Part shown: one piece after another, positions 1-45,309 of the stretch
Layout: every line of letters starts with the position of its first letter
Position numbering within the stretch: position 1 is the stretch's first letter
DNA from: Escherichia coli
Lineage (GTDB): Bacteria; Pseudomonadota; Gammaproteobacteria; Enterobacterales; Enterobacteriaceae
Assembly (NCBI RefSeq): GCF_003334765.1
Contig: NZ_QOWT01000005.1
Strand: one strand, 5' to 3'
Length of the DNA: 64,000 nucleotides
Notes under the pieces: model-generated
What the model was told of the DNA's origin: nothing
Database searches by the model: none
What the model saw: the letters and a program-made list of their open reading frames with translations, nothing else
Position numbers and translations under genes: made by a program

Positions 1-48
1 GGCTTTCTCACGCCAGTCCGGGCGCTCGGTAATACTGACTCTTTCCAT
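1..48 (-). CDS. ygiC: N-terminal fragment (16 codons) of YgiC, glutathionylspermidine-synthase-like protein; gene continues beyond window edge
   Basis: Reverse complement of 1-48 reads ATG GAA AGA GTC AGT ATT ACC GAG CGC CCG GAC TGG (MERVSITERPDW), immediately downstream of ygiB on the minus strand; matches remembered tolC-ygiBC operon order. Confidence 0.5.
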   Translation of the reverse strand, partial: MERVSITERPDWREKA

Positions 49-53
49 CGGTA

Positions 54-725
54 TCAGCCACCCATTGAACGAGAAGAGGTACCGGTTGCACTACGCTGCA
101 TAGTGCTTTGTTTGGCAACAGATTCACCAAAACCGCCACGGGTAACGGTAGTGGTGGTCGCCGGTTTTGGTGCCATTGCCGTCTTCGGTACGGTCATGGT
201 GCGGCCTGGCTGGGCTGCGCCATAGTTTTTACCCGTCGCGTCGGTATATTTACCGTAAGCCGGACTGGCTGGGTTTTTCGAGGAGAACAGCGGCTGCTGT
301 GCAAATCCCGCGCCGCCGCCCATCAGACGCCCCATCATGTAACCGGCCATCAGCGGCATCCAGAAACTCCCGCTGGATTGCTGGGCCTGCGCCTGGTTTT
401 CTGGTGCCATGCCAGCCTGGGCTGGTGCCTGCTGGCACTGACCTTCACCAAATTCAGCAACACAGTCTTCACGGGTGGCGTATTTCGGCGCAGTACGTTC
501 GGCTTCTTTCAGCGCATTGTTGTACGCGGTGGTACATTCGGCGCTTTTGCCTGGGTTTGCAGCTGAACAGTCGTCAGCATTTTGATAGAGAGACACTGTT
601 TCATCACTCTTTTCACAGCCAGCCAGCATAAAAACAGTGGCAACCGCGAGAGCGACTGGTGTCAGATGGCGTGCGCTCCAGTTTTTGCGGAACGATGCGT
701 GGCGTATGGATTTTGTCCGTTTCAT
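54..725 (-). CDS. ygiB: YgiB, DUF1190 lipoprotein-like protein (223 aa)
   Basis: ORF 54-758 minus; internal Met giving [12 protein letters not shown]... with hydrophobic segment and Cys (lipobox-like LAGC); position downstream of tolC. Confidence 0.8.
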
Positions 726-846
726 TTTTGTCTTCCGGGACCAGTGGTAAATACCCATCAGAATAGAGGATGGCTGGTCGAAATTGAAGCGAGAAGGGGG
801 AAGAATGCGGCAGATAACCCGTATCTTTACGTTGCCTTACGTTCAG

Positions 847-864
847 ACGGGGCCGAAGCCCCGT
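847..864 (-). terminator. GC hairpin (ACGGGGC-cgaa-GCCCCGT) immediately after tolC stop; possible intra-operon attenuator
   Basis: Perfect 7-bp inverted repeat read directly; no strong U-tract so not a classic intrinsic terminator. Confidence 0.35.
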
Positions 865-872
865 CGTCGTCA

Positions 873-2354
873 TCAGTTACGGAAAGGGTTATGACCGTTA
901 CTGGTGGTAGTGCGTGCGGATGTTTGCTGAACGACGGGGGCCGGGCTATCAGGCGCATAACCATCAGCAATAGCATTCTGTTCCGGCGTTTGCGGGGCAA
1001 CGTTTTCCGGATTAGTGGAAACCGGTTTGCTCAGCGCATTGTTCAGTGCCAGCAGATCCTGCTCGTTCAACGTACCCAGGGCTGACTTAATATTCAGCTG
1101 ATTAATCAGGTAGTTATAACGCGCATTCGCCAGCTCTTGCTTGGCGTTGTACAACGTGGTGGTCGCATCCAACACATCAACAATGGTACGCGTACCGACC
1201 GAGTAGCCCGCTTCCATCGCGTCTAATGAGCTTTGAGCGGAAACTACGGCTTGTTTGTAGGCGTTAATGCTACTGATAGATGCATTAATGTTGTTGAAGG
1301 AGGAACGCACGGTCTGCACGACGCTACGATGGGCACTTTCCAGTTGCTCGCTGGCACCGACAAAGTTGTACTGTGCCTGTTTCACCTGCGAGTTAACCAT
1401 TCCGCCCTGATAAATCGGCAGCGAGAAGCTCAGGCCAACTTTGTTCTGGCCCATATTGCTATCGTCATACTGGGTACCAGCGGCACCACGGGTTTTCGAA
1501 CCGCTATAAGAGGTGTCAGAAATCCCGGTAGAAGCCGTTAAATCCAGAGTCGGTAAGTGACCATCCTGCGCCTGGCGAATTTGCTCGCGCGCCAGGTCCT
1601 GGCTCAAGCGTGCCTGTAACAGCGACAGGTTGCGTTTTTCGGCTTCTTTCAGCAGCGCGTTAACCGGCTGTGGTTTGTCGGTTTTAAAGTTTTCGACATT
1701 CAGCGCAGCCAGTTCCGGATAGTAGTTACCGGTGATCTGGCGCAGCTGCTCTACCGCGTTATCAAGGTTATTACGTGCGGTCACTTCGTTCGCCAGCACG
1801 GTATCGTACTGTGCGCGGGCGTTCTGCACGTCGGTGATCGCTACCAGGCCCACGTTAAAACGTTGGGTGGTTTGATCTAATTGACGGTAGATCGCTTCTT
1901 TTTGTGCCTGTGTATAGGAAAGAACGTCAATAGCATTCAACACGTTGAAATAAGCGGTCGCGGTGTTGAGGATCAAGGTTTGCTGATCGGTCTGATACGT
2001 GACGTCCTGAATCCCTGCTGCTTTTTCCTGCAGCGTTAACGCACGCCATTTCGACATATCAAAAATGGATTGAGTTAACTGCAAGGACGCACTGGTCGCG
2101 TTAGAGTTGATGCCGTTCGCGTCGCGGTAGCCGTTGCTATAGGTGTAATCTGCACCTAAACCTAGCTGTGGCAGTAATGGACTGCGCGCTTCATTAATTT
2201 TTTCAAAGGCAGCATCACGATCGGCGGCAGACTTACGCAATTCCGGGTTACTAAGGCGTGCTTGCTGATAAACTTGCATCAGGTTCTCGGCCTGGCTCAA
2301 CGAACTGAACCCAGAAAGGCTCAGGCCGATAAGAATGGGGAGCAATTTCTTCAT
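873..2354 (-). CDS. tolC: Outer membrane efflux channel TolC (493 aa)
   Basis: ORF 873-2393 minus; translation MKKLLPILIGLSLSGFSSLSQAENLMQVYQQARLSNPELRKS... is recognisably TolC; start chosen at MKKLL (ATG at 2354). Confidence 0.95.
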   Translation of the reverse strand: MKKLLPILIGLSLSGFSSLSQAENLMQVYQQARLSNPELRKSAADRDAAFEKINEARSPLLPQLGLGADYTYSNGYRDANGINSNATSASLQLTQSIFDMSKWRALTLQEKAAGIQDVTYQTDQQTLILNTATAYFNVLNAIDVLSYTQAQKEAIYRQLDQTTQRFNVGLVAITDVQNARAQYDTVLANEVTARNNLDNAVEQLRQITGNYYPELAALNVENFKTDKPQPVNALLKEAEKRNLSLLQARLSQDLAREQIRQAQDGHLPTLDLTASTGISDTSYSGSKTRGAAGTQYDDSNMGQNKVGLSFSLPIYQGGMVNSQVKQAQYNFVGASEQLESAHRSVVQTVRSSFNNINASISSINAYKQAVVSAQSSLDAMEAGYSVGTRTIVDVLDATTTLYNAKQELANARYNYLINQLNIKSALGTLNEQDLLALNNALSKPVSTNPENVAPQTPEQNAIADGYAPDSPAPVVQQTSARTTTSNGHNPFRN

Positions 2355-2558
2355 TTGCATTCCTTGTGGTGAAGCAGTATTTAGCGCGATCAAACTGTAA
2401 AATTATTGCGGATTCTAGCAGAAGCCGCTACCGCAAAAGGTTGGCGTTACGTGCCATAGGGCGTTAATGTGCCTCAATTTAACACATGACTGCTCAAACG
2501 GCAGTCAAACGTCGCTGAAATTCACATTTAATTCACTATTAGTGCCAGGACATTAACA

Positions 2559-3188
2559 ATGCTTAAGCCAGACAGCCTGCCCGTTACATTTGGCAAAAAC
2601 GATGTAGAAATTATTGCACGAGAAACACTTTATCGCGGCTTTTTTTCATTAGATCTTTATAGATTTCGTCATCGTTTATTCAACGGGCAAATGAGTCATG
2701 AGGTACGGCGGGAAATTTTTGAGCGCGGTCACGCCGCAGTCTTGCTACCCTTTGACCCAGTGCGTGATGAAGTTGTGCTGATTGAGCAGATTCGGATTGC
2801 CGCATACGACACCAGTGAAACCCCCTGGCTACTGGAGATGGTTGCCGGGATGATTGAAGAGGGTGAAAGTGTGGAAGATGTTGCCCGTCGCGAAGCGATT
2901 GAAGAGGCGGGACTGATAGTCAAACGGACCAAACCGGTGTTAAGTTTCCTGGCAAGCCCGGGAGGCACCAGTGAGCGTTCGTCAATTATGGTGGGCGAAG
3001 TGGACGCCACGACCGCAAGCGGTATTCATGGTCTGGCTGATGAAAACGAAGATATTCGCGTTCATGTGGTAAGCCGGGAACAGGCATACCAGTGGGTAGA
3101 AGAGGGGAAAATCGACAACGCAGCGTCGGTCATCGCTTTGCAATGGCTGCAGCTGCATCATCAAGCGTTAAAAAATGAGTGGGCATAA
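2559..3188 (+). CDS. nudF: ADP-ribose pyrophosphatase (Nudix hydrolase)
   Basis: 209 aa ORF divergent from tolC; Nudix-box-like [23 protein letters not shown]; conserved neighbourhood nudF-yqiB-cpdA-yqiA-parE. Confidence 0.9.
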
Positions 3189-3611
3189 ATGAAGCGTTAC
3201 ACACCTGACTTTCCTGAAATGATGCGCCTGTGCGAGATGAACTTTTCACAATTGCGCCGTTTGTTACCGCGCAATGACGCACCCGGCGAAACTGTAAGCT
3301 ATCAGGTGGCAAACGCACAATATCGGCTGACGATTGTGGAATCGACCCGATACACTACCCTGGTGACAATAGAACAGACTGCGCCCGCGATCAGTTACTG
3401 GAGCCTTCCGTCAATGACGGTGCGTCTGTATCATGACGCGATGGTGGCTGAAGTGTGTTCAAGCCAGCAGATTTTTCGCTTCAAAGCGCGGTATGATTAT
3501 CCTAATAAAAAGTTGCATCAACGCGACGAAAAGCATCAAATTAACCAGTTTTTAGCGGACTGGTTGCGATACTGTTTAGCACATGGAGCGATGGCGATTC
3601 CGGTTTACTAG
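3189..3611 (+). CDS. yqiB: DUF1249 protein YqiB
   Basis: 140 aa ORF starting at the base after the nudF stop; conserved position. Confidence 0.8.
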
Positions 3612-3635
3612 CGTCGTGAAACCTAAGGACACCAT

Positions 3636-4463
3636 TTGGAAAGCCTGTTAACCCTTCCTCTGGCTGGTGAGGCCAGAGTCAGGATTTTACAAATTACCGA
3701 TACTCACCTGTTTGCACAAAAGCACGAAGCCCTGTTAGGGGTAAACACCTGGGAAAGCTACCAGGCGGTGCTGGAGGCGATTCGTCCACACCAGCACGAA
3801 TTCGACCTGATTGTCGCGACAGGTGATTTAGCGCAGGATCAATCCTCTGCGGCCTATCAGCATTTCGCTGAAGGCATCGCAAGTTTTCGTGCGCCCTGCG
3901 TCTGGCTGCCTGGCAACCACGATTTCCAGCCCGCGATGTACAGCGCGTTACAGGATGCGGGTATCTCCCCGGCGAAGCGCGTGTTTATTGGTGAGCAATG
4001 GCAAATCCTGTTGCTGGATAGCCAGGTGTTTGGCGTGCCGCACGGTGAGCTGAGCGAGTTTCAGCTTGAGTGGCTGGAACGTAAACTGGCCGATGCGCCA
4101 GAACGCCATACGTTGCTGCTGCTGCATCATCATCCGCTACCTGCGGGTTGTAGTTGGCTCGATCAACACAGTCTGCGTAACGCGGGCGAACTGGATACCG
4201 TGCTGGCGAAGTTTCCGCACGTCAAATACTTGCTGTGCGGTCATATTCATCAGGAGCTGGATCTCGACTGGAACGGTCGCCGCCTGCTGGCAACGCCGTC
4301 GACCTGTGTGCAGTTTAAGCCGCACTGTTCCAACTTTACGCTGGACACCATCGCGCCCGGCTGGCGTACTCTCGAGTTACATGCTGATGGCACGCTGACC
4401 ACCGAGGTGCATCGCCTGGCGGACACACGTTTCCAACCTGATACCGCTTCAGAAGGCTACTGA
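3636..4463 (+). CDS. cpdA: 3',5'-cAMP phosphodiesterase CpdA (metallophosphoesterase)
   Basis: 275 aa ORF, TTG start with AAGGA Shine-Dalgarno upstream; metallophosphoesterase motifs (GDL, GNHD, GHIH). Confidence 0.9.
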
Positions 4464-23846: not shown

Positions 23847-23950
23847 ACGTTCCTCCTTTATATGAACTCACCGGAGCAGGCTCCGGTGAGGTGTTGTGAA
23901 CTTAAGTCTGGACGAAATGCCCGAAAACGAAAGTTTGAGGCGTAAAAAGC

Positions 23951-32491: not shown

Positions 32492-33382
32492 ATGATGCCG
32501 CGTTTAACCGCCAAAGATTTCCCACAAGAGTTGCTGGATTACTACGACTATTACGCTCACGGGAAAATCTCGAAACGTGAGTTCCTCAACCTTGCGGCGA
32601 AGTATGCGGTGGGCGGGATGACGGCATTAGCGTTGTTTGATTTGCTCAAGCCAAATTATGCGCTGGCGACTCAGGTAGAGTTTACCGACCCGGAGATTGT
32701 TGCTGAGTACATCACGTATCCTTCACCAAATGGTCACGGCGAGGTACGGGGTTATCTGGTGAAACCCGCAAAAATGAGCGGCAAAACGCCAGCCGTGGTG
32801 GTGGTGCATGAGAATCGTGGACTGAATCCGTATATCGAAGATGTGGCACGGCGAGTAGCGAAGGCGGGGTATATCGCCCTGGCACCTGACGGCTTAAGTT
32901 CCGTTGGAGGTTATCCGGGTAATGACGATAAAGGTCGTGAGCTGCAACAGCAGATTGATCCAACCAAACTGATGAATGATTTCTTTGCCGCAATTGAGTT
33001 TATGCAACGCTATCCGCAAGCGACAGGCAAAGCGGGTATTACCGGATTTTGCTATGGCGGTGGTGTATCGAACGCGGCGGCTGTCGCGTATCCGGAACTG
33101 GCCTGCGCGGTGCCGTTTTATGGTCGACAGGCACCCACCGCCGATGTGGCGAAGATTGAAGCGCCTTTACTACTCCACTACGCGGAACTGGACACCCGAA
33201 TCAACGAGGGCTGGCCTGCTTACGAGGCGGCGTTGAAAGCCAATAATAAGGTCTATGAGGCGTATATCTATCCGGGGGTTAATCACGGATTCCATAATGA
33301 TTCCACGCCCCGTTATGACAAATCTGCCGCCGATCTTGCCTGGCAAAGGACGCTGAAATGGTTCGATAAATATCTCTCCTGA
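32492..33382 (+). CDS. yghX: Dienelactone-hydrolase-family protein YghX, apparently intact here
   Basis: Continuous ORF 32426-33382 (318 aa from first Met; start uncertain, MMPRLTAK at 32492 chosen); GFCYGG nucleophile motif. Confidence 0.7.
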   Translation: MMPRLTAKDFPQELLDYYDYYAHGKISKREFLNLAAKYAVGGMTALALFDLLKPNYALATQVEFTDPEIVAEYITYPSPNGHGEVRGYLVKPAKMSGKTPAVVVVHENRGLNPYIEDVARRVAKAGYIALAPDGLSSVGGYPGNDDKGRELQQQIDPTKLMNDFFAAIEFMQRYPQATGKAGITGFCYGGGVSNAAAVAYPELACAVPFYGRQAPTADVAKIEAPLLLHYAELDTRINEGWPAYEAALKANNKVYEAYIYPGVNHGFHNDSTPRYDKSAADLAWQRTLKWFDKYLS

Positions 33383-40273: not shown

Positions 40274-40522
40274 ATGTGTATTGGCGTTCCAGGCCAGGTG
40301 CTGGCTGTCGGTGAAGATATTCACCAGCTTGCGCAGGTTGAAGTATGTGGTATCAAGCGCGACGTGAATATCGCCCTGATTTGTGAAGGTAACCCTGCCG
40401 ATCTGCTGGGCCAGTGGGTACTGGTACACGTCGGATTTGCCATGAGCATTATCGATGAAGACGAAGCCAAAGCCACATTAGACGCACTGCGCCAAATGGA
40501 TTACGACATTACCAGCGGGTGA
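40274..40522 (+). CDS. hybG: Hydrogenase maturation factor HybG (HypC family)
   Basis: 82 aa; N-terminal MCIGVP motif typical of HypC. Confidence 0.9.
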
Positions 40523-40530
40523 TGATTAAA

Positions 40531-40564
40531 GCCGGATGCGGCGTAAATGCTTTATCCGGCTACA
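40531..40564. repeat. REP (repetitive extragenic palindrome) element
   Basis: GCCGGATGCGGCGTAAATGCTTTATCCGGCTACA closely matches the classic E. coli REP consensus; lies between convergent hybG and yghU. Confidence 0.8.
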
Positions 40565-40591
40565 TAGCGATAAGCCTGCCAATGTTGCGAC

Positions 40592-41458
40592 TTACCCCTG
40601 ACGCTTATCTTCCGTATTCGTCTCGAAATCACTGGCGTCATGGCGCTCATGCAACTGCTCGTTCAGCGGCCCGTTGGTGCGGTTAACAATACGCCCACGC
40701 TTCACCGCCGGACGTTCGCCCACTTCTTTCGCCCAGCGTTGTACGTGTTTATAACTTTCCGCATCAAGAAACTCTGCGGCATCATACACGCCGCCTAACA
40801 CCACGTTGCCAAACCACGGCCAGATCGCCATATCCGCAATGGTGTACTCATCGCCCGCAACAAACTTGTGCTGCGCCAGTTGCTTATCCAGCACGTCGAG
40901 CAGGCGCTTGGCTTCCATGGTAAAGCGGTTGATGGCGTACTCAATTTTCACCGGCGCGTAATGGTAAAAGTGACCAAAACCACCGCCGAGGAACGGTGCC
41001 GCGCCCTGTAACCAGAACAGCCAGTTCAGCGTTTCAGTCCGTTTTGCCAGATCCTGCGGCAGGAAGTAGCCAAATTTCTCCGCCAGATAAAGCAGAATCG
41101 ATCCAGACTCAAACACGCGGATCGGTGGATTATGGGTATGGTCGCGCAATGCCGGGATCTTCGAGTTTGGGTTCACTTCGACAAAGCCGCTGGAGAATTG
41201 ATCGCCATCGCCAATACGAATCAGCCAGGCGTCATACTCTGCACCAGTAACACCCAGCGCCAGCAGCTCCTCAAGCATAATCGTTACTTTCTGTCCGTTT
41301 GGCGTTCCCAGCGAATAGAGTTGCAGCGGATGTTTGCCCACCGGCAGCGTTTTTTCATGCGTCGGACCAGAAACCGGGCGATTGATATTGGCGAACGCGC
41401 CGCCAGCGGATTTATCCCACGTCCAGACTTTCGCGGGCTGATAAGTATTGTCTGTCAT
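40592..41458 (-). CDS. yghU: Glutathione-S-transferase-family protein YghU
   Basis: ORF 40592-41506; start chosen at MTDNTYQPAKVWTWDK (288 aa). Confidence 0.85.
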   Translation of the reverse strand: MTDNTYQPAKVWTWDKSAGGAFANINRPVSGPTHEKTLPVGKHPLQLYSLGTPNGQKVTIMLEELLALGVTGAEYDAWLIRIGDGDQFSSGFVEVNPNSKIPALRDHTHNPPIRVFESGSILLYLAEKFGYFLPQDLAKRTETLNWLFWLQGAAPFLGGGFGHFYHYAPVKIEYAINRFTMEAKRLLDVLDKQLAQHKFVAGDEYTIADMAIWPWFGNVVLGGVYDAAEFLDAESYKHVQRWAKEVGERPAVKRGRIVNRTNGPLNEQLHERHDASDFETNTEDKRQG

Positions 41459-41662
41459 AGTGAGTTGCCTTCTGAGTGGTAGTGTTGAAGCAGTGTAGCA
41501 GGTCACTTGCTGTACAGAATGTGAATTTTTTAACCCTTTGCGCCAGCCGCTGCGTTGAGGTGTATGATAAGTCAGACCTCTGTCCGGTTAATGTCGCTGA
41601 GCAGGTAATCAGAGCACAACAATTACGCCAACTGCTTAGGTTGTATTGTTAAAGGTAAAGTG

Positions 41663-43522
41663 ATGAGCAAAGGAACGACCAGCCAGGATGCCCCGTTCGG
41701 GACATTATTGGGCTACGCCCCAGGTGGGGTAGCAATCTACTCTTCAGATTACAGTTCTCTCGATCCGCAGGAATACGAAGATGACGCCGTATTCCGTAGC
41801 TATATCGACGATGAATATATGGGCCACAAATGGCAATGCGTTGAATTTGCTCGCCGTTTTCTCTTTCTGAATTACGGTGTGGTCTTCACTGACGTGGGTA
41901 TGGCGTGGGAGATTTTCTCGCTGCGCTTCCTGCGTGAAGTGGTTAATGACAACATCCTGCCATTGCAGGCATTTCCTAATGGCTCGCCGCGTGCACCGGT
42001 CGCGGGCGCGCTTCTTATCTGGGATAAAGGCGGTGAATTTAAAGACACTGGCCATGTCGCCATCATTACTCAATTGCATGGCAACAAAGTCCGTATTGCG
42101 GAACAGAACGTGATTCATTCCCCGTTGCCGCAAGGGCAACAGTGGACACGCGAGCTGGAGATGGTGGTCGAAAACGGCTGCTATACCCTTAAAGACACGT
42201 TTGATGACACCACCATTCTGGGCTGGATGATCCAGACGGAAGATACCGACTACAGCTTACCGCAGCCGGAAATTGCAGGCGAGCTGCTGAAAATCAGCGG
42301 AGCGCGTCTGGAAAACAAAGGTCAGTTTGACGGTAAATGGCTGGATGAAAAAGATCCGCTACAAAATGCCTACGTGCAGGCCAACGGTCAGGTGATCAAT
42401 CAGGATCCGTATCATTACTACACCATTACCGAGAGCGCAGAGCAGGAGCTGATTAAAGCCACCAACGAGCTGCACCTGATGTATCTTCACGCCACCGACA
42501 AGGTGCTAAAAGATGACAACCTGCTGGCGCTGTTCGACATTCCGAAAATCCTCTGGCCACGTTTGCGTCTCTCCTGGCAGCGTCGCCGTCACCATATGAT
42601 CACCGGTCGTATGGATTTCTGCATGGACGAACGTGGCCTGAAGGTCTACGAATACAACGCCGATTCCGCCTCCTGTCATACCGAAGCGGGCTTGATCCTC
42701 GAACGTTGGGCGGAGCAGGGCTATAAAGGCAACGGCTTCAATCCTGCGGAAGGGCTGATTAACGAACTGGCTGGTGCCTGGAAACACAGTCGTGCACGTC
42801 CGTTTGTCCATATCATGCAGGACAAAGATATCGAGGAAAACTATCACGCGCAGTTTATGGAGCAGGCGCTGCACCAGGCGGGCTTTGAAACGCGTATCTT
42901 GCGTGGGTTGGATGAACTGGGCTGGGATGCTGCCGGGCAACTGATTGATGGGGAAGGGCGACTGGTTAACTGCGTGTGGAAAACCTGGGCGTGGGAAACC
43001 GCGTTTGATCAGATTCGTGAAGTCAGCGACCGTGAGTTTGCTGCGGTGCCGATCCGTACCGGTCATCCGCAAAATGAAGTGCGTCTTATCGACGTATTGC
43101 TGCGCCCGGAAGTGCTGGTCTTTGAACCTCTGTGGACTGTGATCCCCGGCAACAAAGCGATTCTGCCGATCCTCTGGTCGCTGTTCCCGCACCATCGTTA
43201 CCTGCTGGATACCGATTTCACTGTTAATGATGAACTGGTAAAAACAGGTTACGCAGTGAAACCGATCGCCGGTCGCTGTGGCAGTAACATCGACCTCGTC
43301 AGCCATCATGAAGAGGTGCTGGACAAAACCAGCGGTAAATTTGCCGAGCAGAAAAACATCTATCAGCAACTGTGGTGTTTGCCGAAAGTGGACGGTAAAT
43401 ACATTCAGGTATGTACCTTCACCGTTGGCGGCAACTACGGTGGGACGTGTTTGCGCGGTGATGAATCACTGGTCATCAAAAAAGAGAGTGATATTGAACC
43501 GTTAATTGTGGTGAAAAAGTAA
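41663..43522 (+). CDS. gss: Bifunctional glutathionylspermidine synthetase/amidase
   Basis: 619 aa from MSKGTTSQDAPFG; N-terminal CHAP amidase (Cys in HKWQCVEFARR) and C-terminal ATP-grasp synthetase. Confidence 0.95.
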   Translation: MSKGTTSQDAPFGTLLGYAPGGVAIYSSDYSSLDPQEYEDDAVFRSYIDDEYMGHKWQCVEFARRFLFLNYGVVFTDVGMAWEIFSLRFLREVVNDNILPLQAFPNGSPRAPVAGALLIWDKGGEFKDTGHVAIITQLHGNKVRIAEQNVIHSPLPQGQQWTRELEMVVENGCYTLKDTFDDTTILGWMIQTEDTDYSLPQPEIAGELLKISGARLENKGQFDGKWLDEKDPLQNAYVQANGQVINQDPYHYYTITESAEQELIKATNELHLMYLHATDKVLKDDNLLALFDIPKILWPRLRLSWQRRRHHMITGRMDFCMDERGLKVYEYNADSASCHTEAGLILERWAEQGYKGNGFNPAEGLINELAGAWKHSRARPFVHIMQDKDIEENYHAQFMEQALHQAGFETRILRGLDELGWDAAGQLIDGEGRLVNCVWKTWAWETAFDQIREVSDREFAAVPIRTGHPQNEVRLIDVLLRPEVLVFEPLWTVIPGNKAILPILWSLFPHHRYLLDTDFTVNDELVKTGYAVKPIAGRCGSNIDLVSHHEEVLDKTSGKFAEQKNIYQQLWCLPKVDGKYIQVCTFTVGGNYGGTCLRGDESLVIKKESDIEPLIVVKK

Positions 43523-43537
43523 TACATGTTGTAGCAA

Positions 43538-43572
43538 CCCCGTACTGATTATGAAGAATAATCAGCACGGGG
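43538..43572 (+). terminator. Hairpin after gss (15-bp stem with one mismatch, 5-nt loop)
   Basis: CCCCGTACTGATTAT-gaaga-ATAATCAGCACGGGG read directly; no strong T-tract. Confidence 0.45.
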
Positions 43573-43809
43573 ATTAATCAAAACATTCAACATTTATATA
43601 TTCCAATATTTATTTAATATATGAATATATTAACCAGTGGAATACCTGTGTTTTGATTATTTCTAAAGATTTTGAATGAATGCTTATTGTCTGATACACA
43701 AGAAATAACACGCTTTTTATCGTTAAAAAATGATATTTCACTTTGCCCATGCCGTTAAAGTCACTGATAATGCGTCCGTTCGTAAATTCAAAATGGCGTA
43801 ATCTAATAT

Positions 43810-45309
43810 ATGCTAAATTTATTTGTTGGCCTTGATATATACACAGGGCTTTTGTTATTACTTGCTCTGGCATTTGTGTTGTTCTACGAAGCAATCAATG
43901 GTTTTCATGACACGGCGAATGCGGTGGCAACCGTTATTTATACTCGTGCCATGCAACCACAACTTGCTGTGGTGATGGCGGCATTTTTTAATTTTTTTGG
44001 CGTGTTATTGGGCGGACTTAGCGTTGCCTATGCCATTGTCCATATGTTGCCAACCGATTTGTTGCTGAATATGGGGTCAACCCACGGTCTGGCGATGGTC
44101 TTTTCCATGCTGCTGGCGGCGATTATCTGGAACCTGGGAACGTGGTTCTTTGGTTTACCGGCCTCCAGTTCGCACACCTTGATTGGTGCGATTATCGGCA
44201 TCGGTTTAACCAACGCGCTGTTAACCGGCTCATCGGTGATGGATGCGTTAAACCTGCGTGAAGTGACCAAAATTTTCTCCTCGCTGATTGTTTCCCCTAT
44301 CGTCGGCCTGGTCATTGCGGGTGGTCTGATTTTCCTGCTGCGCCGTTTCTGGAGCGGGACGAAAAAGCGTGACCGTATTCACCGCATTCCGGAAGATCGC
44401 AAAAAGAAAAAAGGCAAACGTAAGCCGCCATTCTGGACGCGTATTGCGCTGATTGTTTCCGCTGCGGGCGTGGCGTTTTCGCACGGCGCTAACGACGGGC
44501 AGAAAGGGATCGGCCTGGTGATGCTGGTACTGGTGGGGATTGCCCCTGCTGGCTTCGTCGTCAATATGAACGCGTCCGGCTATGAAATTACCCGTACCCG
44601 CGATGCCGTCACCAACTTCGAACACTACCTGCAACAGCATCCTGAACTGCCGCAGAAGTTGATTACGATGGAACCTCCATTGCCTGCGACATCGACTGAT
44701 GGCACGCAAGTAACAGAGTTTCACTGTCATCCGGCAAATACCTTTGATGCGATTGCGCGCGTTAAAACGATGCTGCCAGGCAATATGGAAAGTTACGAGC
44801 CGTTAAGCGTGAGTCAGCGCAGCCAGCTGCGCCGCATTATGCTGTGCATCTCTGATACCTCCGCGAAGCTGGCGAAACTGCCAGGCGTCAGTAAAGAAGA
44901 CCAGAACCTGCTGAAAAAACTGCGCAGCGATATGTTAAGCACCATTGAGTACGCACCGGTGTGGATCATCATGGCGGTAGCACTGGCGCTCGGCATCGGC
45001 ACCATGATTGGCTGGTGTCGTGTAGCGATGACCATCGGTGAGAAGATTGGTAAGCGCGGCATGACGTATGCGCAAGGCATGGCGGCACAAATGACGGCGG
45101 CAGTGTCTATCGGCCTTGCCAGTTATATTGGGATGCCCGTCTCCACAACACACGTCCTCTCGTCTGCAGTAGCAGGGACGATGGTGGTGGACGGCGGTGG
45201 GTTACAGCGTAAAACGGTAACCAGCATCCTGATGGCGTGGGTGTTTACTTTACCGGCGGCGATTTTTCTTTCTGGTGGGTTGTACTGGATAGCATTGCAG
45301 TTGATTTAA
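43810..45309 (+). CDS. pitB: Low-affinity inorganic phosphate transporter PitB
   Basis: 499 aa polytopic membrane protein; PiT family; AT-rich leader upstream. Confidence 0.9.

Follow-up and report, generated by a model that had tools for sequence, protein, structure and literature searches.

The glutathionylspermidine synthetase/amidase gene gss and its distant paralogue ygiC in a conserved segment of the Escherichia coli chromosome

The stretch of Escherichia coli DNA analyzed here (64,000 nucleotides, referred to as the window) is very probably an ordinary piece of E. coli core chromosome, in which gss and the beginning of ygiC are found together by conserved gene order and not because they form a functional unit. 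Judged by their sequences, the products of the two genes are ancient, distant paralogues that share a synthetase domain, and the gss allele of the window almost certainly works like the assayed K-12 enzyme, because 618 of the 619 residues are identical and the codon differences between the two alleles are synonymous in 42 cases and nonsynonymous in one. The genes gss, yghU and ygiC and the tolC-ygiBC operon have already been annotated, crystallized and biochemically studied, and the findings on them are already known. The features on which the analysis rests are listed in Table 1.

Table 1. Positions of the genes, domains and other elements around gss and at the ygiC end of the window
Feature	Position	Strand	Description	Basis
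ygiC, first 16 codons	1..48	-	remainder beyond the window	translation MERVSITERPDWREKA
ygiB (DUF1190)	54..725	-	directly upstream of ygiC, 5-bp gap	annotation
tolC	873..2354	-	first gene of the tolC-ygiBC operon	annotation
yghU	40592..41458	-	nu-class glutathione transferase homologue, GSH-dependent disulfide-bond oxidoreductase	NF008731
yghU-gss divergent intergenic region	41459..41662	.	204 bp	sequence
gss	41663..43522	+	bifunctional glutathionylspermidine amidase/synthetase, 619 aa + stop	ORF, RefSeq annotation, NF007801
CHAP amidase domain of Gss, N-terminal	41816..42109	+	residues 52-149	Pfam PF05257, E 4e-10
GSP_synth synthetase domain of Gss, C-terminal	42413..43507	+	residues 251-615	Pfam PF03738, E 3.7e-65
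Stable hairpin	43538..43572	+	16 nt past the gss stop codon, no T-tract	
pitB	43810-45309		downstream of gss	ORF list, annotation

RESULTS

Gss of the window and the K-12 enzyme

The ORF listing for 40.5 to 45 kb contains a plus-strand open reading frame at 41660-43522 that opens with GTG, and the annotated ATG lies one codon further on, at 41663. This is the gene start that an earlier reading of the DNA, made from the sequence only, had given, and its description of a full-length Gss was borne out, since both the amidase and the synthetase domain were found. RefSeq annotates the identical span in the near-identical genomes F1022 and B771. Over residues 1-619 of 619, the protein matches the NCBIfam equivalog NF007801 with 1281 bits at a cut-off of 882, placing it in that family, and it aligns from end to end with E. 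coli Gss in PDB 2IO7 with E196D as the single difference. The K-12 protein, Gss/GspSA (b2988; PDB 2IO7, 3O98, 3A2Y), likewise has 619 residues and two domains, and its gene likewise lies between yghU and pitB; the one substitution that separates the window's protein from it is conservative and located in the linker region. At the DNA level, the two genes show 43 nucleotide differences, corresponding to the 42 synonymous codons and one nonsynonymous codon mentioned above, a ratio that indicates strong purifying selection on gss. The 3.5-kb DNA allele of the gss region is rare, being found at an identity of at least 99% in only 5 of 5418 genomes. We considered whether this rare gss/yghU allele reflects unusual divergence and rejected the idea, given that the difference from K-12 amounts to 0.6-4.4% per 500 bp and is almost all synonymous.

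All catalytic and binding residues of the K-12 enzyme that were checked are also present in the window's Gss. Read from the sequence, the amidase domain carries C59, H131 and E147, so that a CHAP domain with the Cys59/His131 pair is in place; H131 and E147 presumably act in the amidase site. The synthetase domain carries R316, D318, E330, N332, S337, D387, D389, E391 and E392, among them the complete set of residues assigned to the spermidine/GSH site (Ser337, Asp387, Asp389, Glu391 and Glu392). The Pfam name of the family to which this domain belongs, PF03738, is "Glutathionylspermidine synthase preATP-grasp."

The synthetase domain of Gss uses ATP to convert the glycine carboxylate of glutathione (GSH) into an acyl phosphate, which then undergoes attack by N1 of spermidine; Glu391 and Ser337 position the amine, and roles have also been described for the acidic cluster 387-392 (PMC6272389). 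Cys59 is the nucleophile of the amidase, which hydrolyzes glutathionylspermidine (Gsp), and H2O2 turns this cysteine into a stabilized sulfenic acid, leaving the amidase inactive (PMC6272389). Once the amidase is off, the level of Gsp rises and the compound becomes attached to protein thiols in mixed disulfides; thiols then restore the amidase activity (PMC6272389). Applied to the protein of the window, the synthetase domain would join glutathione and spermidine to glutathionylspermidine and the amidase domain, via Cys59, would split this product; peroxide, by oxidizing Cys59, would switch the amidase off, upon which glutathionylspermidine would build up and could S-thiolate proteins. The same architecture of amidase and synthetase is found in the trypanothione synthetase-amidase of kinetoplastids (PDB 2VOB, 2VPM), with which Gss residues 10-609 align (E 5e-92). 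Unlike Gss, this enzyme adds a second glutathione to yield trypanothione, and its host is a eukaryote; its C-terminal tail blocks the amidase site (PMC6272389).

YgiC at the left edge of the window

Read in reverse complement, bases 1-48 yield the peptide MERVSITERPDWREKA, in agreement with the earlier proposal that the window starts with the first 16 codons of ygiC. The fragment is on the minus strand, a detail that the proposal had not given. In B771 and F1022, this reading frame continues as an annotated ygiC of 386 aa, so that the outcome which would have spoken against the proposal, a frame not running on as ygiC, was not observed. Both genomes are close to the window: the alignment to E. 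coli B771 (NZ_CP120557.1) has no gaps and a single mismatch over 64,000 bases, and that to isolate F1022 has 3 mismatches across the first 47,408 bases. The full YgiC protein, taken from the source genome and not from the 48-nt fragment, contains a single full-length PF03738 domain at residues 12-384 (545 bits) and no amidase domain, in line with the YgiC/YjfC ligases, and its match to PDB 7UK8 ("putative acid-amine ligase YgiC") has an E value of 9e-273. The DUF1190 gene immediately upstream of ygiC corresponds to the two-gene arrangement of the YgiC/YjfC module. In the account of Dhamdhere and Zgurskaya (2010) that is cited in PMC11762307, tolC-ygiBC is an operon with ygiC as its last gene.

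Relationship between Gss, YgiC and YjfC

The sequence-only reading had called Gss and YgiC a known paralogue pair. This description is correct: the two proteins have PF03738 in common, structures have been solved for both, and BLASTP aligns residues 241-618 of Gss with residues 22-386 of full-length YgiC at 27% identity (E 3e-38). YgiC is not a Gss equivalog, reaching 167.8 bits against NF007801, well under the cut-off of 882, and it scores higher with trypanothione synthetase (139.8 bits) than with E. coli Gss (121.2 bits). Its identity to YjfC, in contrast, is 50.6% (E 1e-142), and a DUF1190 gene precedes both ygiC (ygiB) and yjfC (yjfM), the products of these two upstream genes being related to each other (YgiB-YjfM, E 5e-13). 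By protein sequence, ygiBC and yjfMC are duplicated two-gene sister modules, because YgiC and YjfC share half of their residues and YgiB and YjfM are homologous, and Gss is a distant branch. The YgiC/YjfC peptide-spermidine ligases (PDB 7UK8, 7UK6) thus resemble Gss in the PF03738 synthetase fold of its C-terminal domain and differ from it in the missing amidase domain, in the Gsp synthetase activity that they are reported to lack, in the DUF1190 partner that each of them has, in sequence and, for ygiC, in the location within the tolC operon.

A three-way alignment of Gss, YgiC and YjfC identified R316, D318, E330, N332, D334, E391, K533, R538 and N542 (Gss numbering) as invariant. From Gss to YgiC, the aligned residues change at S335 (to Thr), S337 (to Thr), C338 (to Ser), D389 (to Val) and E392 (to Asp). 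This residue pattern is as expected for enzymes that would share the ATP and polyamine half-reaction and differ in the acyl substrate. As relayed in PMC11762307 and PMC12506659, Sui (2012) reported that YgiC has no glutathionylspermidine synthetase activity, and Pederick (2023) described it as a peptide-spermidine ligase. RefSeq currently names the K-12 YjfC "peptide--spermidine ligase," and the assignment of EC 6.3.1.8 to YgiC is presented as a wrong machine prediction (PMC12506659). With its synthetase-only architecture, and with R316, D318, E330, N332 and the spermidine-binding glutamate retained, YgiC would ligate spermidine to peptides, not to glutathione. The earlier suggestion that thiol-polyamine chemistry flanks the region is therefore unsupported, since the chemistry reported for YgiC is that of polyamines and the label fits Gss only; the closer kinship of YgiC with YjfC and the gene order described below speak against it as well. 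Formally, the physiological substrate of YgiC could be a thiol-containing peptide.

Gene order between gss and ygiC

According to the sequence-only reading, the two paralogues occupy both ends of the window. For gss this is wrong, as the gene lies at 65-68% of the window's length, 20.5 kb short of the right edge. Between gss and ygiC there are 41.6 kb with 44 annotated, unrelated housekeeping genes, and the two genes are on opposite strands and in different transcription units; their flanking of the region carries no functional meaning. The genes of the interval include tolC, nudF, cpdA, parE, mdaB, qseBC, mqsRA, parC, plsC, ftsP, yqhD, dkgA, metC, exbBD and the hyb hydrogenase-2 operon. The window is even in GC content (47-58% per 2 kb), and searches of it for tRNA genes, tandem repeats and mobility genes found none. 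The sole Rfam match is the ES173 sRNA, far from both gss and ygiC. Of 5426 complete E. coli genomes, every one contains the ygiC end of the window, and 5418 contain the gss end. Relative to K-12, the window lies in reverse orientation, and its 32-49 kb part, which is the part that was compared, runs collinear with the K-12 chromosome, from which it diverges by about 2%.

The neighborhood of gss in E. coli and other Enterobacterales

The sequence-only reading had also placed gss next to a glutathione-S-transferase-like yghU, and the two genes are indeed neighbors, with yghU lying 204 bp upstream in divergent orientation. The window's YghU scores 558.5 bits against the NF008731 equivalog (cut-off 325) and is two residues off the YghU of K-12, making it an equivalog within the nu-class glutathione transferases of the YghU/YfcG kind. 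YghU stands outside the Gss reaction, and any link between it and glutathionylspermidine is positional only. The intergenic region contains one weak promoter-like match, in a scan that performed at chance level; around gss, the promoter and terminator scans gave 4 matches versus 3.3 expected and 3 versus 3.1 expected, respectively, and are thus at the level of shuffled sequence. Downstream of gss, the RNA fold of 43523-43600, which contains the hairpin, has a free energy of -22.9 kcal/mol (z -5.55) and was matched in stability by 0 of 200 shuffles, while the terminator scan made no call at 43538-43572. The hairpin may serve as a terminator or as an mRNA stabilizer.

For a comparison across species, each species (GTDB) was represented by a single genome, and close relatives of Gss were sought in these genomes. 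The 80 loci retained show 79-98% identity and belong, by title, to Enterobacterales; upstream neighbors were counted at the 77 of them where the sequence extends 3 kb or more upstream. In 50 of the 77 species, yghU is found within 5 kb of gss, divergent every time, and in the other 27 it is missing from this distance. The gap between the two genes falls into three sizes, with direct adjacency (135-346 bp) in 23 species, 0.75-1.2 kb in 16 and 2.7-3.3 kb in 11. The product of the short insert has 186 aa, a thioredoxin fold (Pfam Thioredoxin_4, E 4e-4) and a CPYS motif; its gene occurs at 20 loci, of which 4 lack yghU, and the window does not have it. The long insert encodes, in Citrobacter, a molybdoenzyme of the YdeP/FdhF family. 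Counting yghU and the thioredoxin-fold gene together, 54 of the 77 enterobacterial species have a thiol oxidoreductase gene upstream of gss in divergent orientation. No constant alternative gene was found upstream of gss at the loci without yghU, where the neighbors vary and include peptide ABC ATPases, an acetoin reductase, sigma-54 and LacI-type regulators and a ModA-like protein. About nine of the loci in Enterobacter, Lelliottia and Leclercia have neither of the two genes and show co-directional genes for DppD/DppF-type peptide ABC ATPases. Downstream of gss, pitB is seen only in Escherichia among the 80 loci. None of the 80 species has a ygiC-like gene at a distance of up to 5 kb from gss, the sole match to YgiC at each locus being the cross-match of gss itself.

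DISCUSSION

That gss and ygiC lie so close together is slightly unexpected, and the signal is weak, post hoc and compatible with chance: by our own arithmetic, the probability of a given pair falling within 41.6 kb on a 5.1-Mb circle is about 1.6%; gss, ygiC and yjfC form three pairs, and the probability that the closest one is this near is about 5%. One could take this spacing, together with the PF03738 domain that both proteins contain, as the trace of a local duplication, tandem or segmental, in the distant past, the copies of which were later separated by insertions and rearrangements. Such an origin is highly improbable, though, as the more diverged pair is the one that lies close together, which argues against local duplication; Gss and YgiC are only 27% identical, whereas YgiC and YjfC are 50.6% identical despite being more than 1 Mb apart in K-12. 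YgiC is also nearer to trypanothione synthetase than to Gss in bit score, the DUF1190 partner common to ygiC and yjfC is missing for gss, the strands of the two genes are opposite, 44 unrelated genes separate them, and a ygiC-like gene within 5 kb of gss was not found in any of the 80 species. Less credible still, and in our view close to negligible, is an island, either dedicated to thiol and polyamine metabolism or horizontally acquired, of which the two paralogues would mark the boundaries. The interval does contain genes for redox functions and aldehyde detoxification (mdaB, ygiN, yqhD, dkgA, yghA, gpr, metC and yghU), but it equally contains tolC, parE, parC, plsC, ftsP, qseBC, mqsRA, exbBD and the hyb hydrogenase-2 operon; its GC content is even, tRNA genes and tandem repeats are lacking in the window, the region is part of essentially every E. 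coli genome, and the compared 32-49 kb are collinear with K-12 at the low divergence given above. The idea that gss and ygiC delimit a gene cluster or an island was consequently rejected, the strands being opposite, the intervening genes unrelated, the composition even and the occurrence in E. coli nearly universal, with neither mobility genes nor boundary repeats found. We infer that gss and ygiC are without functional coupling, in keeping with conserved gene order on the core chromosome as the explanation that we favor.

Whether gss is coupled to its direct neighbor is a separate matter. The partly conserved placement of a thiol oxidoreductase gene beside gss is suggestive, and it is conceivable, if rather unlikely, that gss and the divergent yghU constitute a functional thiol-redox module, in which YghU, and in other genera the additional thioredoxin-fold protein, would reduce Gsp disulfides or mixed disulfides between Gsp and proteins after inactivation of the Gss amidase. 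That yghU keeps one and the same orientation wherever it occurs in the 5 kb upstream of gss (50 of 77 species, with direct adjacency in 23) would fit such a module, as would the CPYS protein encoded between gss and yghU, or in place of yghU, at 20 loci, and the classification of YghU as a GSH-dependent disulfide-bond oxidoreductase by the NCBIfam equivalog. Vanillin stress, moreover, raises the levels of both the Gss and the YghU protein, but it does so for many other glutathione enzymes as well (PMC6561319). The pair is also not found at 27 of the 77 loci, at least within 5 kb, and unrelated genes can split it, such as that for the YdeP-family molybdoenzyme in Citrobacter. The sampled species are all close relatives within Enterobacterales, so that shared gss-yghU synteny is expected from descent alone, and descent could explain the partly conserved placement too. 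A more specific version, to which we assign a somewhat lower probability again, would make YghU in E. coli, or in genera such as Klebsiella, Raoultella and Kluyvera the CPYS protein (alone or together with YghU), a dedicated partner reductase of Gss that closes the cycle of S-thiolation by Gsp. Such a reductase would take glutathionylspermidine off proteins or reduce Gsp-disulfide.

For the family, the evolutionarily informative pairing is that of ygiBC with yjfMC, and not that of ygiC with gss. YgiC should accordingly be read neither as a thiol enzyme nor as a second glutathionylspermidine synthetase, a correction that matters as automated predictors still err on this point (PMC12506659). The thiol oxidoreductase genes beside gss, for their part, offer a testable lead on what may reverse protein S-glutathionylspermidinylation.

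A rare allele at gss and features elsewhere in the window

The hybG-yghU-gss-pitB stretch (40500-44000) turned out to be a rare DNA allele, matched at ≥99% identity in only 5 of 5,418 E. coli genomes, the next best match being at 98.9%; for comparison, positions 1-4000 of the window reach that identity in 3,821 genomes. Relative to K-12, 4.6% of the bases of yghU differ, but just two residues do, and the rest of the 32-49 kb region diverges from K-12 by 0.6-4% per 500 bp. Within this allele, a strong hairpin lies just past gss, and the RNA fold of the segment that includes it (43523-43600) has a minimum free energy of -22.9 kcal/mol (z = -5.55). No T-run follows this hairpin, and a simple terminator scan passed over it. 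Rfam gave a single match in the window, the ES173 sRNA, located between dkgA and yqhD, and yghX, a pseudogene in K-12, is annotated as intact in the window's lineage. A published statement on a neighbor of gss (PMC8472993) is unsupported by sequence or family models and looks like a mix-up with gss itself.

Features of the window and of gss loci from other species
Feature	Location	Strand	Remarks
ES173 sRNA	window 23885-23948	-	Rfam, 99 bits (gathering score 90)
yghX	window 32495-33382	+	295 aa, annotated as YghX family hydrolase
Hairpin	window 43538-43572	+	16 nt past the gss stop codon
8.4-kb segment	window 48842-57227 (plus yghO to about 58328)		K-12 lacks it
Genes on one strand of the segment	within 48842-57227		full-length yghQ-like flippase, hypothetical, YtfJ-family, lptF/lptG-like permeases
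Genes on the opposite strand	within 48842-57227		spt (serine palmitoyltransferase), acyl carrier protein, epimerase-family reductase, fatty acyl-AMP ligase
Repeat-like element (…GCCCCTCGGGGAAAGGGTTAGGGTGAGGGTGA…)	window 58329-58421		93 bp, between yghO and glcC
Thioredoxin-fold protein	L028 4224-4781	-	186 aa, CPYS motif; Klebsiella pneumoniae, also 19 other loci
Two DppD/DppF-type peptide ABC transporter ATPases	L040 2884-4835	+	

A sphingolipid-precursor segment and its border

At the site of the 8.4-kb segment, K-12 has an IS5 between truncated yghQ and yghO, while the segment is present at ≥80% coverage in 4,064 of 5,426 E. coli genomes. Together with yghO, it holds the set of E. coli genes for sphingolipid precursors described in PMC9386255, passages of which name the set aasR/epi/acpR/spt plus yghO as aca (ECD_02850-02854 in BL21) and leave the co-located Lpt-like and flippase genes unmentioned. 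Beyond yghO, the near-identical genome F1022 carries a different 18-bp segment in place of the 93-bp element. Since relatedness to F1022 changes at this element, from 99.98% identity before it to 98.3% beyond, its position suggests a recombination boundary. The element itself resembles a Box C repeat.

Genes accompanying gss in other Enterobacterales

Among the gss loci retrieved from one genome per species, those with the thioredoxin-fold gene, which stands between yghU and gss and is transcribed divergently from the latter, belong to Klebsiella, Raoultella, Kluyvera, Pluralibacter, and some Enterobacter; yghU was not found within the flank at four of these loci, and E. coli has no such gene. 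Its product matches Pfam Thioredoxin_4 (E = 4e-4) and returned no match in an NCBIfam search. In Lelliottia, Enterobacter, and Leclercia species without yghU beside gss, the DppD/DppF-type pair lies directly upstream of gss and is co-directional with it, with an arrangement like that of L040 in about eight more loci (L043, L045, L046, L047, L054, L055, L056, and L074). For these ATPases, the glutathione importer GsiA is a secondary match, and the two genes and gss could be an arrangement that joins peptide or glutathione uptake to gss.
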